Below are positions 2,682-11,087 of a stretch of 12,624 nt of DNA, piece after piece (the first letter of the stretch is position 1; each line of letters opens with the position of its first letter). A model generated the notes under the pieces. That model ran no database searches. It had not been told where the DNA came from and saw nothing but the letters and a program-made list of their open reading frames with translations. The translations under genes and the position numbers were made by a program. The DNA is from Candidatus Thorarchaeota archaeon (GTDB lineage: Archaea; Asgardarchaeota; Thorarchaeia; Thorarchaeales; Thorarchaeaceae): assembly GCA_029858305.1 (NCBI GenBank), contig JAOUFI010000064.1:1-12624 (forward strand), in the 5' to 3' direction.

Positions 2682-3500
2682 CTACTTGCTAACTATTTTA
2701 GTGCAATTGACATTTAGTCCCTTGAGGAGAGCCTTAAGGTTTCCATACTTCATCATTGATATCAGGGTAGTTTCGAGACCATCTTCGATGAGGTCTTTAA
2801 CGACTGAGATATATGATAGTTTGCCCTTCATCGCTCCACTTGCATCGACTTTTCCTAATTGTTCAAGTCCTTCCATGACTCTGTCAAGGTCATTGATGTC
2901 AATCTCAGTCAGTAACTTTGCATGAGGGTTCTTCTTCGGATCCTCGTCATAAACTCCGAGCTCATCCATGGCAAAAATCAGACGTTTGGCTCGAAGATCA
3001 CGAGCCAAGATTATTGCTAGCTCATCACCGCTACCGATACTAAAACCCATAGTCTTGTCATAGAGTAGATCCCCTCCAAGGATGGGAATCATCCCTAAAG
3101 TCATCCAACCCTTCAATGGTTCGAAAGATGTCTTAGTGACTCGCATTTTCTCTGCAACTAGCATCGATGATGGATGAAGAAGGTTCACAGGCAATCCAGC
3201 CTCTTGAAACTCCTTTGTTATCATCAACCGAAACTCATTGACAATGCTTTGGGTCTTAGAGAGGGGGATGAATTGCTCAGGTCCTGTGAATCCCTTATAC
3301 AGCTTGTATTGGAGAACTGGAGGATGCCCAAATGAACCAACTCCATGGATAATGACAAGGGACTGAATCAGTCCCTCGTCTTTGCAGTCCTTTAGCTCTT
3401 TAGCTACAGCTGCAATTATGGACTTCCTCGCCTCGTATGGTCTTGATTTATCTGTGAGAAGGGACCCACCCAGCTTGATTACCGTGAGCTCTTTCTCCAT
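2682..3500 (-). CDS. ipk: Isopentenyl phosphate kinase (amino-acid kinase family)
   Basis: 272 aa. 'VIKLGGSLLTDK', 'IIHGVGSFGHP' with the IPK signature His, 'PILGGD', 'SGDEL', 'GVYDEDPK', 'DASGAMKGKL'. AAGGTGG SD upstream. Confidence 0.88.
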   Translation of the reverse strand: MEKELTVIKLGGSLLTDKSRPYEARKSIIAAVAKELKDCKDEGLIQSLVIIHGVGSFGHPPVLQYKLYKGFTGPEQFIPLSKTQSIVNEFRLMITKEFQEAGLPVNLLHPSSMLVAEKMRVTKTSFEPLKGWMTLGMIPILGGDLLYDKTMGFSIGSGDELAIILARDLRAKRLIFAMDELGVYDEDPKKNPHAKLLTEIDINDLDRVMEGLEQLGKVDASGAMKGKLSYISVVKDLIEDGLETTLISMMKYGNLKALLKGLNVNCTKIVSK

Positions 3501-3522
3501 TCTTCGAATTCCACCTTGATTT

Positions 3523-4314
3523 TTAGATGGTTAGTAGTGCAAATGGCCACCATGCAGGAATTAAGTTGATGAAGAGAAGAATCACGACGATTACAGCAAT
3601 TGGAACTGTCCAGTTATCAAGATTCTTTGGTGTGAGAGCCTCGACTATTGTTGCGACTATTGAGATCACAAGTACGGGCAAGAACAACAGAACAAGGTCA
3701 AAAGCTGCATATTCTAGCGAGAAGATAGCGATTAAGATGTAGCTGAATAAGAAGGAACCGATTAGCATGCCAATCGAGCCCGCAATAGTCTTCTCTGCAC
3801 CACCAATGCCAAACTTCTTTGCACCTCCAAATTTCCTCCCAATGACATCAGCTAAACCATCTCCACCCGCAAGACACCCGAGAATCACAAAGGCTGTTGG
3901 ATTTCCAGCTGGAGAATAGAACCAGAGAAGTGTGACTATGCAGATAATGAGAGCATAGTAGAGGGTTCCTTTTAGCAATTCTTTTGGATCTCCAGACCTA
4001 GACATTGATCCTACGAATGCTTCATTCACGACTTTTCCCGTACCGATACCAACAAAGAGAAGCACAAACAGAACTGGTACAATCAAGGCAAGATAGCGAC
4101 TGAAGAGCGTACCAGAGTATAAATACCAAGTCACCAGAAAGACAGGAGCTGCAAATATATGAACAATTTTTCGTGTCACATCAGAAGAGAGTTTTCCACT
4201 CTTCTGAATTGCGCCGTTAACCAGAACTACTAGCATCACAGCGATGATTGAAATAACCATTGCAATGATATCCCATACTAGCTCCAGACCAGGACCTAAG
4301 AGATTGAGTACCAA
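3523..4314 (-). CDS. CTP-dependent polyprenol kinase (phytol kinase VTE5 / farnesol kinase FOLK / dolichol kinase family), integral membrane
   Basis: 263 aa, multi-TM. 'TRKIVHI', 'MSRSGDPKELLKGTLYY' (VTE5/FOLK-like), 'GGDGLADVIGRKFG', 'KTIAGS', 'VEAL...LDNWTVP'. TTG start with GGAGG 9 nt upstream. Confidence 0.88.
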   Translation of the reverse strand: MVLNLLGPGLELVWDIIAMVISIIAVMLVVLVNGAIQKSGKLSSDVTRKIVHIFAAPVFLVTWYLYSGTLFSRYLALIVPVLFVLLFVGIGTGKVVNEAFVGSMSRSGDPKELLKGTLYYALIICIVTLLWFYSPAGNPTAFVILGCLAGGDGLADVIGRKFGGAKKFGIGGAEKTIAGSIGMLIGSFLFSYILIAIFSLEYAAFDLVLLFLPVLVISIVATIVEALTPKNLDNWTVPIAVIVVILLFINLIPAWWPFALLTI

Positions 4315-4414
4315 TTACATTTTCCTCCTAGAACTGTTTGTCCCAACAGGACGAGTAGGCTGGCTATAAGTCTGCTTGAGAATCGTTGGAACACGTGGTC
4401 GAAATAACTACAAC

Positions 4415-5038
4415 CTAGCCAGATTCACGTATTTTGAGCGGTAAGTGAATCATCTGACTGATAGCCAACCAAAGCCTCGCCAAGATAGGGGTTAGAAGGA
4501 TGACAGAAGGAAGTCCTACGGTCAGAAGAGGCAACAAGACAAAGCCAAGCTCGACGAGTACTGATTGGTTTTCAATCACTAGTCCAATCATTACCAAAAT
4601 AAGTGCTGTGAAGACTAAACCAATGGTTGAAAGAACTGACATCTTACCTAGTGACCTACCTTTTGAGAAATCGTATGAGGAAAGTCCCACGATTAGTCCA
4701 AGAATTCCATAGGCTAATGCTTGAAGAGTCAGACTCACAATAACACCATAGAAGACTAAATCATGCAGAATGATTCCCAAGTACCCTGTGAGAAGCCCTG
4801 CAAGAGGTCCGCGAATTGCTCCAATCAGAGCAATGATAGCCAATGCAGGTGAAAGGCCGAACTTAAAGAGGGAAATCATGGTATAAGGCATAGGTATTGA
4901 ATAGATCAAAGCGAAAATCCCAGCACCAATTAGACCAAAAAGAAGTGTCAAAAGAGTCATTATGGGAGTCTGAACCCTGAGTTTTTTACCGATTGCGATC
5001 CTATTTCCATCAAGATTGCCAGCTGAGGCCTCAACCAT
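4415..5038 (-). CDS. ECF-type transporter substrate-binding S-component, substrate unknown
   Basis: 207 aa, about 6 TM segments. 'ALIGAIRGPLAGLLTGYLGIILHDLVFYG...YGILGLIVG' fits the S-component GP..G...G..G..L.D pattern. Its ATG is 2 nt after the upstream stop, and its SD (GGAGGGTGA) lies inside the upstream gene. Confidence 0.72.
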   Translation of the reverse strand: MVEASAGNLDGNRIAIGKKLRVQTPIMTLLTLLFGLIGAGIFALIYSIPMPYTMISLFKFGLSPALAIIALIGAIRGPLAGLLTGYLGIILHDLVFYGVIVSLTLQALAYGILGLIVGLSSYDFSKGRSLGKMSVLSTIGLVFTALILVMIGLVIENQSVLVELGFVLLPLLTVGLPSVILLTPILARLWLAISQMIHLPLKIRESG

Positions 5039-5040
5039 CC

Positions 5041-6681
5041 TTAGTCACCCTCCATGATAACCAATTGATATGTGCCGGGTTGCAATGTCAAAAGATAATC
5101 ACTTCCAGATGCAGTCAAATCTCCGATTGACACACCTCCAGAGTAGGCAGTCGGAACACCACTGAAGTTACTAAACGCCAACTCCGCGGTGCTATCGACC
5201 TTGATGTTCAGAATGAAACCGGATTTTATGGGGTCCCACTTTGCTTGATAGACCCAGATGTTATCATCGTCTGCGGAGCTGATATAGGGATAATTCCAGA
5301 ACTCTGTAGGACGTGAATCGGCAAGATCACGTACTGTGACCGACAACGTTGACCAGACTGAAAATCCTGAGAGGACTGATGACATAAATGGATCAAGTGA
5401 CGATGCATCATAGTACATCTCTCTTCCATCTTCGGACCAGACCTTATTGACCATTCCCTGCAGCAAGTTAAGAAGACGATCCCTTGTACTGAAATCGCCT
5501 CTCTGATTAGCAAGAACCATGGTAAAGACTGTACCCAAAATCCCAAACACATCACCAAACGAACTCGGATGTTTGTATGACCCCAGCATGTACATTGCAT
5601 CCCCAGACACATCCCGTCCATAAAGATCAAGGAATACTGGGTACTTGGGTATAGTAGAATCTGGAATGGTATATTCCAAAAAGGTGAGAGCCCATGCAGT
5701 TCCATAGGAAGAAAGACTTGGACCACCTACAGAATGATCGATAGCCTGCCCAGGGATTTGTTGTGGAAGAAGATCTGAATTTGGCCCCCAACCAACGGGT
5801 TTCTGAACAAAGTATCCGTTTGTATAGAGACCATACTCATCAGTGATGTTTGCCTCAATGAAATCAATACCATAGTCCCACATTCCACTCTCCATAAAAC
5901 TAGTCCCGTACATATTATCATAGAGCTCTGTGGTATAGATGGGAATACTATTACATTGTACAAATACGACATAGGGTTCACAGGGAATAAGACCTGTTCC
6001 CCAGAGCCCTCCGGGTTTTGGATTTCCAAGACGGTCCGTTGTTGTAGAGTTCTTCCAATCGATGATATATCCAGTTAGCTCATCTTCTACTGTTCCGAAG
6101 TTGAAGTTTCGTTCATAGAGAGCCATCATCAAGGCATAGTGGCCAGTCCACATAATATTCGCCGGACCTCTAAATCCTCCTGTGTATACATCATTAGCAT
6201 CAGGATAAGTGGCATTCGGGTAGTAATAATCAGTAAATCCAGGAATAGAAACCCATTCAGAGTACTCCATTGACTCGTTTCCGTACTCAGCAATAGAGGT
6301 ATTCATTCGAAGAATCTGTGCATGTGCAAAGTCCTCATAGAATGCAGTCCTATACCCAGAAGTGGTTTCACAGGTAGCAGCAAAGAGATATGCTAAAAAT
6401 GCGTTAATGTACTGAAGAGCCCAGCTGTATCTTTCTGCATTCCAACCGGCCCATTGATTTGGAGCCTGTTCTGTTATAAGGTGATCAAAATAGTTGATGA
6501 TTGCAATTTGTTCGTGAGTCAATGCAGGATAATCTCCAAAGCTGAAAATGGTGTCATTAATTACTTGGAATCCTTGTGACACTCCAGGCGAGGGTAAGTT
6601 GCTAAAGGTCATTCCACCAAGCACAATTGTAATGACGCAAGCACAAATAACGAACTTATTCTGTTTAAGAATCACGAACAT
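5041..6681 (-). CDS. Linalool dehydratase/isomerase (LinD)-like protein, exported or N-terminally anchored
   Basis: 546 aa with an N-terminal hydrophobic signal or anchor. Motifs are colinear with Castellaniella LinD as recalled: 'QYINAFLAY' (KYSIAFYAY), 'NIMWTGHYALM' (NIMYKGHLNLM), 'LIPCEPYVVFVQCNS' (IVCEPDNYFVQCNS), 'YDNMYGTSF' (YDRLHGTDY), 'SSYGTAWAL' (SAYTTAWTL). It also has a C-terminal beta-rich extension. Confidence 0.85.
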   Translation of the reverse strand: MFVILKQNKFVICACVITIVLGGMTFSNLPSPGVSQGFQVINDTIFSFGDYPALTHEQIAIINYFDHLITEQAPNQWAGWNAERYSWALQYINAFLAYLFAATCETTSGYRTAFYEDFAHAQILRMNTSIAEYGNESMEYSEWVSIPGFTDYYYPNATYPDANDVYTGGFRGPANIMWTGHYALMMALYERNFNFGTVEDELTGYIIDWKNSTTTDRLGNPKPGGLWGTGLIPCEPYVVFVQCNSIPIYTTELYDNMYGTSFMESGMWDYGIDFIEANITDEYGLYTNGYFVQKPVGWGPNSDLLPQQIPGQAIDHSVGGPSLSSYGTAWALTFLEYTIPDSTIPKYPVFLDLYGRDVSGDAMYMLGSYKHPSSFGDVFGILGTVFTMVLANQRGDFSTRDRLLNLLQGMVNKVWSEDGREMYYDASSLDPFMSSVLSGFSVWSTLSVTVRDLADSRPTEFWNYPYISSADDDNIWVYQAKWDPIKSGFILNIKVDSTAELAFSNFSGVPTAYSGGVSIGDLTASGSDYLLTLQPGTYQLVIMEGD

Positions 6682-7526: not shown

Positions 7527-7805
7527 TCATCTGCGGGTGTCCACCATAAGAAACTCTTGAAACAACTTCATTATTCGTAGAAGGTCGGTATGTATCTCTT
7601 CTTTCTCTTCGCCTCTTTGGCTTAGAAATTCCTGGAGTTGTGGGCTTTCAATCAAGGTCTCGAGGGCTGATTCTAGTTCTCTACTAAGATAGCGTATTGC
7701 ATACAATGTGGGAACAGGAATTCCACGTGAGGTGAATCCGTTAAGGAGAGTAATGGGAAGTGATTCTTCAGCGTCTTGTTTTTCTTGATGAAGATTCAAA
7801 TACAT
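7527..7805 (-). CDS. Small hypothetical helical protein
   Basis: The ORF track gives 7527..7880, but a GAGGTGA SD just upstream favours ATG 7805 or TTG 7799 (about 90 aa). The sequence is acidic and amphipathic and fills the gap between genes. No family recognised. Confidence 0.55.
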   Translation of the reverse strand: MYLNLHQEKQDAEESLPITLLNGFTSRGIPVPTLYAIRYLSRELESALETLIESPQLQEFLSQRGEEKEEIHTDLLRIMKLFQEFLMVDTRR

Positions 7806-7966
7806 CACCTCTAGGAAATAGGATGATTGCCTACAACTTTGACTATCTATTGTATACTCAGTAACCAAGATTATAATCACATATCAAAATCAAAGGGTGT
7901 GCAAGATGGAATTCAATAATTGAATCATCCTTAAAGAGTCTCATTGAGGCTGAGTGACCATTCAAT

Positions 7967-9717: not shown

Positions 9718-10002
9718 ATGACAGAGTTCCAATTTGATATGATGAAGTCAGCACTTACAGAGCTGAACCTCCCCGAAGTAACTCATTTGGCTTGCCTGAC
9801 TATCTTGGACGATAAACGAACCAAAGATATCTTCACCGCCAAAAATACAAGAAATGTTATCGCAGGTGCAATCTACATTACTGCAATTCAAACAAACAAC
9901 CGTGTCACGCAACGTCAGATTGCCGATGTGGTAGGAGTTTCTAAATCTACAATTTACACATACTATGTGAGGATGGCTAAACTATTAGGGTTATACGGAT
10001 AG
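9718..10002 (+). CDS. Stand-alone TFB/TFIIB C-terminal cyclin-fold/HTH domain protein
   Basis: 94 aa. 'IAGAIYITA...NRVTQRQIADVVGVSKSTI...Y..MAK.LGL' matches the TFB second repeat (AAAALYIA...RRTQREVA.VAGVTEVTIRNRY). No Zn ribbon or first repeat. Confidence 0.8.
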   Translation: MTEFQFDMMKSALTELNLPEVTHLACLTILDDKRTKDIFTAKNTRNVIAGAIYITAIQTNNRVTQRQIADVVGVSKSTIYTYYVRMAKLLGLYG

Positions 10003-10112
10003 ACAATATAGTCTTCTTTCATCAAAGATTAGCTATGCGGCAATCGCTCTATCTGATGACGAGATTTATCTGTGGGAATCTCGTCAATGGTGAGAGAACG
10101 TGTGTGGCCCAA

Positions 10113-11087
10113 ATGATAAAGACCAAAGTAACCGAGATGCTTGGATGTAAATATCCGATTATATCCGGAACCATGGCTAGGATTTCCAATCCTGAATTTG
10201 TCGCGGCATCTAGCAATGCGGGTGCATGTGCGGTATTAGCAAGTGCAAACTACAAGTCTCCTGATGATCTTCGTGATGCAATTAGAAAGACTCAGTCTCT
10301 AACAAATCAACCATTTGCAGTCAATATCAATTTGTTTCCTGCTTTAATGCCTCAAGAAAAGCTAGAGGATTATGTGGATGCTACATTAGCCGAGGGCGTG
10401 AAAATCATTGAAACAAGTGGTCATAAGGCACCAGAGAACTTAGTTCCTAAATTCAAGAACAGTGGTGCTATTTGGATTCACAAATGTGCTGGAGTGAGAT
10501 ACGCAAAGAAAGGAGCATCCTTGGGTGCGGATATTGTAACGGTTGTCGGATATGAAAATGGTGGAGCTACCGGGACTCTAGATATAGGAACGATGGTAAT
10601 GATTCCATCCGTTGTTGATGCTCTAGATGTTCCTGTGATCGCCGGAGGTGGAATAACAGATGGCAGAGGTGTTGCCGCAGCCTTGGTACTGGGTGCTGAA
10701 GGAGTAATTATGGGTACAAGGATGATGGCTACAAAAGAATGTCCCATTCATGACAATCTCAAACAGGCTTTTATCAAGGCTGCAGAAACTGATACAGTTC
10801 TGGCCTTGCGTTCGGTTGGAAATACACACAGGATATGGAACAATAAGGCGGCGCAACATGTACTTGAGTTGGAGGCACAAAAATCACCCCTATTCATGCT
10901 CATTCAAGCCGCCTCTGGAGATAAGGCGCAAGAGATGTACAGAAATGGAGATATTGATCTCGGAGTGGTAGCATGTGGTCAAGGTGTAGGCTTGATTAAT
11001 GATATTCCCACTGTTAAGGAATTATTGGATAGAATAATGGTTGAGGCTGAAGAAAATATTTCACGACTTCATGGCAGATTCGAGTAG
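10113..11087 (+). CDS. Nitronate monooxygenase / FabK-like FMN-dependent oxidoreductase
   Basis: 'KTKVTEMLGCKYPII', 'PFAVNI', 'VPVIAGGGITDGRG', 'GAEGVIMGTR', 'GQGVGLINDIPTV'. The family N-terminus favours ATG 10113, or GTG 10104 with a GGTGA SD, over ATG 10035. Confidence 0.9.
   Translation: MIKTKVTEMLGCKYPIISGTMARISNPEFVAASSNAGACAVLASANYKSPDDLRDAIRKTQSLTNQPFAVNINLFPALMPQEKLEDYVDATLAEGVKIIETSGHKAPENLVPKFKNSGAIWIHKCAGVRYAKKGASLGADIVTVVGYENGGATGTLDIGTMVMIPSVVDALDVPVIAGGGITDGRGVAAALVLGAEGVIMGTRMMATKECPIHDNLKQAFIKAAETDTVLALRSVGNTHRIWNNKAAQHVLELEAQKSPLFMLIQAASGDKAQEMYRNGDIDLGVVACGQGVGLINDIPTVKELLDRIMVEAEENISRLHGRFE

Follow-up and report, generated by a model that had tools for sequence, protein, structure and literature searches.

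According to the excerpted text of PMC10849223, the salvage of free isoprenoid alcohols (prenols) is thought to need a CTP-dependent prenol kinase and a polyprenyl-phosphate kinase. Biochemical work has demonstrated it in animals, plants and archaea, and the same excerpt gives its genes as known only in plants (FOLK, VTE5 and VTE6) and Plasmodium (PolK). For the archaea, Ohnuma et al. 1996 is cited for kinase activities on geranylgeraniol and on geranylgeranyl phosphate in Sulfolobus (excerpts of PMC9385802 and bioRxiv 10.64898/2026.05.15.725266), and it has been proposed from isotope studies that archaea of sediments save energy by recycling isoprenoid chains, with the enzymes not assigned (excerpt of bioRxiv 10.64898/2026.05.15.725266). 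The present analysis concerns contig JAOUFI010000064.1 of the Candidatus Thorarchaeota archaeon assembly GCA_029858305.1 (12,624 nucleotides, hereafter the window; contig C69 of host genome G000, which is 3.04 Mb in size and 88.9% complete), in which four minus-strand genes, here called A to D, occupy positions 2682-6681. We lean towards reading these genes as two independent two-gene modules that abut in this lineage, namely C-D, which would serve the salvage of prenols, and A-B, which would work at the cell surface.

Gene A (5041-6681, 546 aa, ATG start) encodes a LinD-family protein that is putatively membrane-anchored, and gene B (4415-5038, 207 aa, ATG start), which begins 2 nt after A, encodes a small polytopic membrane protein of the energy-coupling factor (ECF) S-component type. 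An intergenic region of 100 nt (4315-4414) separates B from gene C (3523-4314, 263 aa, TTG start), a polytopic candidate CTP-dependent prenol kinase, and 22 nt after C follows gene D (2682-3500, 272 aa, ATG start), a divergent second isopentenyl phosphate kinase (IPK) of the amino-acid-kinase fold. The open reading frame (ORF) listing confirmed the four co-oriented genes with gaps of 2, 100 and 22 nt that a first reading of the sequence (the initial annotation) had reported. Because there are many conserved homologues of each (215 proteins for A and 665 for C), A to D are real genes and not chance ORFs. The four family assignments made at that time are firm for A, B and D, the profile scores of which lie above the cut-offs, and tentative for C, which has no Pfam match.

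Several described systems resemble parts of the locus. The VTE5/FOLK and VTE6 proteins of plants and cyanobacteria and the PolK of Plasmodium are similar to C-D in the proposed sequence of alcohol, monophosphate and diphosphate, and in having a polytopic membrane protein as the first kinase. In contrast to VTE5/VTE6, the second kinase would here be a soluble IPK paralogue of the amino-acid-kinase fold instead of a DUF92/VTE6 membrane protein, and C, unlike VTE5/FOLK, matches no curated family model, while C and D form an adjacent and conserved archaeal pair. The Sulfolobus activities, two successive kinase steps on a C20 prenol in an archaeon, are what we propose for C-D. Compared with the canonical archaeal IPKs of M. 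jannaschii, T. acidophilum and M. thermautotrophicus (PDB 3k4o, 3lkk, 3ll9, 7lnt and 8u0k), D shares the fold, the family threshold and the catalytic residues, but it is a second and patchily distributed copy that belongs to a clade of its own, carries V87, G142 and G or C at position 156 as clade features, and lies beside a membrane kinase-like gene. The engineered "isoprenol" routes, in which a promiscuous alcohol kinase and an IPK convert alcohols to diphosphates (excerpt of PMC8500459), follow the same logic but are synthetic, whereas C-D would be natural. The LinD (Ldi) of Castellaniella defragrans (PDB 5g1u, 5hlr, 5i3t and 6tft) has in common with A the alpha/alpha barrel, the equivalents of M125, H129, C171, E172 and C180 and perhaps an extracytoplasmic location; A differs in being archaeal and only 19-20% identical, in carrying a membrane helix at its N-terminus and, at its C-terminus, an additional beta-sandwich of about 80 residues, and in being always followed by an S-component-type gene. 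The RibU-like ECF S-components (PF07155) are similar to B in size, topology and fold, but B is coupled to an enzyme gene and not to ECF T/A genes, and its score only just exceeds the Pfam threshold and falls well short of that for the riboflavin equivalog. In a literature search that fell short of most subscription journals, we found no report that connects archaeal IPK paralogues with prenol kinases and none that deals with archaeal LinD homologues; the excerpted text of PMC11052028, which deals with Asgard archaea and isopentenyl phosphate kinase, makes no mention of IPK paralogues or copies.

The paired genes C and D

Among close relatives (40 genomes plus the host genome, 41 in total), an orthologue of C with at least 40% identity was found in 17 genomes, and D adjoins it in all 17. 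In G029, the C of which is 33% identical, the pair is also adjacent, in the order D-C, which makes 18 of 18 relatives, and C and D are neighbours in all 13 loci of named Thorarchaeota metagenome-assembled genomes (MAGs). In a wider sample of 201 Asgard genomes, for which coordinate tables were compared by hand, C-type matches (E≤1e-20) occurred in 78 genomes and IPK-family matches (E≤1e-15) in 183. Of the 69 genomes with C at about E≤5e-30, at least 49 had, among the matches listed, an IPK match within 1 kb of C; this is a lower bound because the count rests on the IPK matches listed and several C genes lie at contig ends. C-D pairs were seen in families f1, f2, f9, f12, f14, f20 and f24 and, in divergent orientation, in one f22 genome, with G029 of f6 falling just under the threshold. 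The order is C before D in f1, f2, f9, f12 and f24, and D before C in f6, f14 and f20.

Gene D scored 160.1 bits against the NCBIfam model IPPK_Arch (NF040647; cut-off, 120 bits; 159.7 bits in the genome-wide search) and matched solved IPKs at E values from 2.5e-34 to 5.7e-21. The other IPK of the host, on contig C157 (188.1 bits), is only 25% identical to D, resembles the solved IPKs equally well and adjoins genes for ribosomal protein S10 and a GlmS-type protein. Because the C157-type IPK was found in 23 of the 25 genomes of genus g1 (the exceptions, G006 and G020, have completeness values of 80% and 90%, respectively), compared with 16 of 25 for the D type, D is regarded as the accessory copy. 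In a quick IQ-TREE run of 62 rows, which excluded the duplicate loci L001, L002, L026-L030, L032 and L036, one group of 40 rows (Shimodaira-Hasegawa-like approximate likelihood ratio test, SH-aLRT, 86) took in all 38 C-adjacent IPKs; its core clade (33 rows; SH-aLRT 96) spans f1, f2, f9, f12 and f24. The two non-adjacent rows inside this group came from G052, where C lies 3.3 kb off on the same strand, and from an f22 genome; the remaining IPKs of the genomes represented in the group fell outside it. The C-adjacency label changed 3 times on the tree, compared with a mean of 18.1 in shuffles, none of 500 of which was as low, although this statistic overstates independence because related rows share labels. 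The D-type IPKs are a distinct clade tied to C.

Comparison of 40 D-clade IPKs with 20 others showed that K9, G11, G53, G55, G58, H59, D144 and D159 are kept in all 40 and all 20, respectively; the catalytic roles of His and Asp in IPK are those given in the excerpted PMC8500459. The two sets differ systematically elsewhere. Position 87 is V in 39 of the 40 D-clade sequences and M in 19 of the 20 others, and position 142 is G in 33 of 40 and aromatic in 17 of 20. At position 155, V (32 of 40, with I in the D of the window) stands against I (19 of 20), and at position 156, G or C (32 of 40) against L, V or I (20 of 20). The D of the window carries V87, G142 and G156. In the Thermoplasma IPK, four residues of the alkyl pocket are Y70, V73, V130 and I140; smaller pocket residues broaden the range of IPKs, and engineered variants accept geranyl phosphate and farnesyl phosphate (excerpt of PMC8500459). 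The substitutions of the D clade lie beside alkyl-pocket positions and would fit a roomier pocket, with 87, 142 and 156 as candidate pocket-lining sites.

Gene C matched no Pfam family even at E≤10 and no NCBIfam family, and a genome-wide search with CTP_transf_1 (PF01148) matched another gene, on contig C50, and not C. We found 665 homologues of C and examined the names of the 120 listed, which include, in JGI or NCBI records, phytol kinase, dolichol kinase and diacylglycerol/polyprenol kinase family and, in some cases, phosphatidate cytidylyltransferase. A 22-sequence profile of C had CdsA (4q2g) as its sole and weak match among solved chains (E 0.023), and the alignment covers GDG-x-A-x-x-x-G-x-x-x-G and the K-T-x-x-G block. 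Invariant in C are R48, K49, H52, G151, D152, G153, E225, D233 and N234. The protein has 10 predicted helices and an AlphaFold2 (AF2) model with a mean predicted local distance difference test (pLDDT) of 90.0, for which a Foldseek search of the PDB gave no match at E≤0.001. C probably belongs to the CdsA/CarS/polyprenol-kinase superfamily, judging from these sequence likenesses. Because no curated model matches it, we do not file C as a proven member of the polyprenol kinases and claim only that it would work like one. The label of candidate prenol kinase is given tentatively, on the names of its homologues, on faint resemblances to CdsA in profile and in fold, and on a presumed likeness of its motifs to those of VTE5.

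The host encodes two further proteins that may be related to this function. A C-like paralogue on contig C19 is 31% identical to C, is present in nearly all relatives and matched no Pfam or NCBIfam family. A DUF92/VTE6-type protein (220.4 bits) is encoded at G000:C194:12645-13439 (L081 4604-5530), unlinked to both prenol-kinase-like genes. No isoprenoid genes were found in the neighbourhoods of the C19 paralogue and the DUF92/VTE6-type gene.

Going by the family names (CdsA/dolichol-kinase/phytol-kinase superfamily), C would phosphorylate a free isoprenoid alcohol dissolved in the membrane, such as farnesol, geranylgeraniol or phytol, with CTP as the probable phosphate donor. D, which we picture as a specialised IPK paralogue with intact catalytic residues and smaller residues around the alkyl pocket, would then add a second phosphate from ATP to yield a prenyl diphosphate usable by prenyltransferases. 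Such a two-step phosphorylation by C and D had been suggested in the initial annotation and, as a candidate function, is well supported by the conserved C-D pairing. The accompanying suggestion that prenyl diphosphates would be supplied without de novo mevalonate flux has to be dropped: the host has a 3-hydroxy-3-methylglutaryl-CoA (HMG-CoA) reductase (376.5 bits), a mevalonate kinase (235.3 bits) and the second IPK, so salvage would add to de novo synthesis and not replace it.

Neighbours of C-D in other families, each a single case, jointly point to isoprenoid use, uptake and ester hydrolysis. In G181, a heme-O-synthase-like UbiA prenyltransferase (204.8 bits; cut-off, 210.3 bits) and a helix-turn-helix protein precede C-D on the same strand, and in G125 a polyprenyl synthase gene directly follows C. 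A major facilitator superfamily (MFS) transporter gene follows D in G090 and G205 and lies nearby in G197. A long-chain acyl-CoA-ligase-like gene precedes C in G090, and an alpha/beta hydrolase gene lies directly before D-C in G127.

We regard C-D as the more robust and interesting element of the locus, a candidate for prenol-salvage logic in which an IPK paralogue acts as the second kinase. It offers two clonable candidate genes for archaeal prenol salvage and, if confirmed, would parallel in nature the engineered two-step "isoprenol" routes of terpenoid biotechnology (excerpt of PMC8500459).

The LinD-like gene A and the S-component-type gene B

Gene A scored 59.8 bits against the Pfam family Ldi (PF18566; cut-off, 26.1 bits; E 4.3e-16), and the match is confined to A residues 230-293, which correspond to profile positions 139-202 of 318. 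In a phmmer search of solved structures, LinD chains were the sole matches with E<0.1 (E about 5e-8); A N175-I-M177-W-T-G-H181 aligned to LinD N123-I-M125-Y-K-G-H129, and A C234-E235-P...C243 aligned to LinD C171-E172-P...C180. In an alignment of 45 sequences, of which 14 have 34% identity or less to A, conservation is complete at M177, C234 and C243 and at least 90% at H181 and E235. The counterparts C171, C180 and M125 of LinD are named as mutated residues in PDB titles; H129 and E172 presumably also have active-site roles.

The AF2 model of A, which was built from the same alignment (pLDDT 92.3; predicted template modelling score, pTM, 0.90), has a helix near the N-terminus (9-26), followed by an alpha/alpha barrel (about 50-465) and, at the C-terminal end, a beta-sandwich (466-543). 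In a Foldseek search with this model, ranks 1-27 were all LinD chains, and the next hit had an E value of 2.3e-5; the LinD rows listed had E values of 6.6e-14 to 5.6e-13, template modelling scores (TM) by target of 0.76-0.80, 415-422 aligned columns and 19-20% identity. Profile score, aligned catalytic residues and predicted fold together identify A as a true LinD-family protein. The helix at 9-26 is the lone N-terminal hydrophobic one and has K6 and K9 in front, and A is putatively extracytoplasmic, in which case the barrel would lie outside the cell. The subfamily is small, with its 215 proteins found at E≤0.001 in a collection of 5.8 billion, and 54 cluster representatives at E≤0.001 among 1.84 billion. 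Two or three LinD-like copies or fragments occur in G016 (C29 and C3), G189 (C16), G140 (C4 and C17) and G042, and in G016 each LinD-like copy has its own S-component gene beside it. Selenocysteine was considered in A homologues and rejected, the flags for one internal TGA being the genes' own C-terminal stop codons.

Gene B scored 30.0 bits against the Pfam family ECF-ribofla_trS (PF07155), barely above the cut-off of 26.7, and 31.9 bits against the NCBIfam riboflavin S-component equivalog, below the cut-off of 99. In the protein atlas, B scored 0.92-0.93 by features against three clusters with PF07155 in 84-100% of their members, and its atlas model aligned with four PF07155 clusters over 166-174 residues with TM by query of 0.71-0.73. 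By family score and predicted fold, B is thus of the ECF S-component type. CbiQ/EcfT-type genes are found on contigs C185 (100.3 bits) and C180 (95.6 bits), neither near the window.

A is present in 13 of the 41 genomes of the close-relative set, at 14 loci, and B lies directly downstream in all 14. The most distant A-B locus is that of G036, which belongs to another family and has an A that is 36% identical. At this locus (L020, contig C1, 7872-10501), a DrrA-like ABC ATPase gene and a 561-aa gene without a family lie divergently upstream of A.

Judging from its conserved catalytic residues, A may act without cofactors on a hydrophobic alkene or alcohol, by hydration, dehydration or allylic isomerisation. 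It would be held by one N-terminal helix with the LinD-type barrel outside the cell, and B may bind the product of A for uptake. To our knowledge, the sole characterised members of the LinD-fold family act on acyclic terpene alcohols, and we know of no S-component with a dedicated ectoenzyme, although no search was aimed at such cases. A LinD-like ectoenzyme with an S-component would extend to archaea a family of few bacterial terpene degraders, and A-B would suggest a new arrangement in which an enzyme is dedicated to an uptake protein.

Independence of the two pairs and alternative readings

We read A-B and C-D as independent modules because of their co-occurrence counts, the genes found between them in other genomes and the TATA-like box before C. 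Of the 25 genomes of genus g1, both pairs are found in 8, A-B alone in 4, C-D alone in 8 and neither pair in 5; the corresponding numbers for the 44 genomes of family f1 are 19, 7, 12 (one of them doubtful) and 6. The odds ratio of A and C co-occurrence is about 1.3-1.4 in g1 and f1 (about 1.4 in f1). Where an f1 genome has both pairs, they lie within 3 kb of each other on one strand in 9 of 19 cases (genera g1, g15, g23, g25 and g29) and on different contigs in the other 10. In the wider sample, A was found in 29 of the 201 genomes (25 of 43 in f1 plus G000, 2 of 3 in f13 and 1 of 10 in f22); in f9, f12, f20 and f24, the genomes sampled have C-D and no A. Almost all occurrences of A fall in f1, and C-D spans about nine families.

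Across 20 loci of relatives and 13 loci of named MAGs, the genomes of which partly overlap, a backbone of trm5, hyp349, GT4, [D-C], [B-A] and hyp117/nitronate monooxygenase (NMO) is conserved, and either pair can be missing from it. In G014 and G024, C-D lies elsewhere and A-B is in place. All four genes are co-oriented and tightly packed also in G006, G021, G041, G189 and G192. Six of the loci that carry both pairs have a 1-Cys peroxiredoxin gene between B and C, and in four of these an opposite-strand gene for a FUR-family regulator is there as well. In G015, where A was not found, the stretch directly upstream of C (L023, contig C90, 2982-3140) retains a 58-aa piece of B containing stop codons, which looks like a decayed A-B module.

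On its coding strand, C is preceded by a TATA-like CTTATAG (4364-4370), 56 nt before the start of C, and by AGGAGG (4324-4329) ahead of the TTG start at 4314. Among 27 loci whose C orthologue is 55% or more identical, one of them incomplete, a TATA-like box stands at -49 to -61 of the C start in 19, including the window, and anywhere within 260 nt upstream in 21. Its presence does not depend on which gene lies upstream, be it B, the peroxiredoxin gene or another. We infer from this box that C has its own promoter.

Several observations weigh against the reading of independent modules with C-D as a salvage pair. With the pairs 100 nt apart here and within 3 kb in 9 of 19 f1 genomes across five genera, read-through or a loose functional link between them is possible. 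Among the matches listed, C and D are not adjacent in up to 20 of the 69 genomes, mostly of f22 and f27. The DUF92 protein or the C19 paralogue could provide salvage without D. According to the excerpt of PMC8500459, natural IPKs accept chains of 10 or more atoms poorly, and the canonical pocket residues of D (L80, T83, L145 and I155, mapped by hand from the alignment) are not strikingly small; the C157 IPK has I, I, V and I at the same hand-mapped positions, so that the comparison with D is not decisive. In one sediment metatranscriptome library (contigs; 6% of sampled words), pieces about 99% identical to the window were found at 3555-3745 (191 nt, in C) and 5072-5298 (227 nt, in A), with no cover elsewhere in the window. 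These two short RNA contigs show presence only and not transcript ends or joint transcription, and DNA carry-over is possible.

Among the alternatives, the one that we take most seriously, while still holding it doubtful, is that A-B is unrelated to isoprenoids, with A modifying another extracellular hydroxylated or unsaturated compound, such as a micronutrient precursor, and B taking up traces. The S-component family matched by B is a vitamin-transporter family, just 64 central residues of A match the Ldi profile, the identity of A to LinD is 19-20%, and 7 f1 genomes and G036 have A-B and lack C-D. A nevertheless keeps the full LinD catalytic set, A-B is repeatedly found near C-D, and the only characterised members of the fold family, as PDB titles and the biochemistry known to us have it, act on acyclic terpene alcohols. 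The initial annotation had instead joined all four genes in one pathway, in which A would make primary prenols from extracellular terpenes or tertiary allylic alcohols, B would import them, and C and D would phosphorylate them to prenyl diphosphates. The tight packing in the window and in the five other genomes named above, the closeness of the pairs in five genera, the occurrence of pieces of both A and C in one RNA library and the fitting chemistry, in that LinD-type enzymes yield the primary allylic alcohols needed by a prenol kinase, all speak for it. We nevertheless consider it unlikely, given the independent presence and absence of the pairs, the 7 f1 genomes with A-B without C-D and the 12 with the converse, the lack of A in the sampled C-D genomes of f9, f12, f20 and f24, the opposite-strand FUR gene and the peroxiredoxin gene that part the pairs in many genomes, and the conserved TATA-like box of C; the shared position is largely explained by the conserved backbone. 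As an obligate unit, the four-gene pathway is not supported, in view of these gains and losses and the narrower distribution of A. The synteny expected across Asgard genomes was found within A-B (14 of 14) and, widely, within C-D, and not as an obligate link between the two.

The readings that concern the role of C-D itself appear less probable again. C could be a dolichol or polyprenol kinase for the recycling of glycan carriers and D an alternative C5 IPK that boosts or regulates mevalonate flux, their pairing being isoprenoid housekeeping. D does score above the cut-off of the curated IPK equivalog and has all its catalytic residues intact, JGI names most C homologues among the matches listed "dolichol kinase", a GT4 glycosyltransferase gene is a conserved neighbour, and the single-copy IPKs of other Asgard families are about 33% identical to D, as near to D as to the other copy. 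However, D is patchy (16 of 25 g1 genomes, compared with 23 for the other IPK), the D-type IPKs form their own C-tied clade with systematic changes next to the alkyl pocket, the C19 paralogue in nearly all relatives is a better candidate for the housekeeping dolichol kinase, and GT4 is convergent to D and not co-transcribed with it. We give still less credence to the fullest version of the joined reading, in which A-B and C-D, 100 nt apart in this sub-lineage, make up a complete outside-to-inside recycling line: A would hydrate or isomerise sedimentary isoprenoid alkenes and tertiary alcohols (such as phytadienes, isophytol, nerolidol or geranyllinalool) to primary prenols, B would capture them, and C with a long-chain-adapted D would convert them to prenyl diphosphates for ether lipids. 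If true, this line would supply the genes behind the recycling of isoprenoids that has been proposed for benthic archaea. Very improbable, finally, is a C that is a CdsA/CarS-type cytidylyltransferase, with C-D making a CDP-activated isoprenoid or lipid intermediate. Some NCBI records do name C homologues "phosphatidate cytidylyltransferase", but PF01148 matches the host gene on C50 and not C, most source names of the homologues are kinases, and pairing with a monophosphate kinase would better fit a kinase cascade.

Palindromic sites, neighbouring genes and long IPK frames

Further upstream on the coding strand of C lies a near-palindrome, GACCACGTGTTC (4389-4400), which recurs with at most one mismatch at -86 to -98 of C in 5 of the 27 loci compared. 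The genome has 6 exact copies of the 12-nt palindrome GAACACGTGTTC, compared with 0.16 expected, and 18 copies when up to one mismatch is allowed, compared with 6.1 expected. The sites are those in the window (4389-4400), on C176 (2104, 2352 and 2401), at C113:7163, at C187:5611 and at C205:154609. Three exact copies are clustered before IorAB-like 2-oxoacid:ferredoxin oxidoreductase genes, and others lie before a HEAT-repeat gene, before an Fe-S flavoprotein gene and inside a geranylgeranyl-reductase-like gene. No clear isoprenoid regulon was found among the genes near the palindrome copies. The palindrome may be an operator of some regulator.

IPK homologues that do not adjoin C include several in long frames, namely L061, L062 and L074 (about 634-637 aa) and L064-L066 (about 442-453 aa), compared with the usual 260-280 aa, which suggests a fusion with another domain in these IPKs of Asgard families f9, f21 and f12.

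Of the other genes in the window, the conserved hypothetical genes hyp349 (292-1341, 349 aa) and hyp117 (7527-7880, 117 aa) have no Pfam or NCBIfam family, and both keep their places in the backbone across the genus. The NMO/FabK-like gene lies at 10035-11087 (PF03060, 209 bits), and 32 nt upstream of it a 94-aa ORF (9718-10002) encodes a single TFIIB cyclin-type repeat (PF00382, 34 bits).

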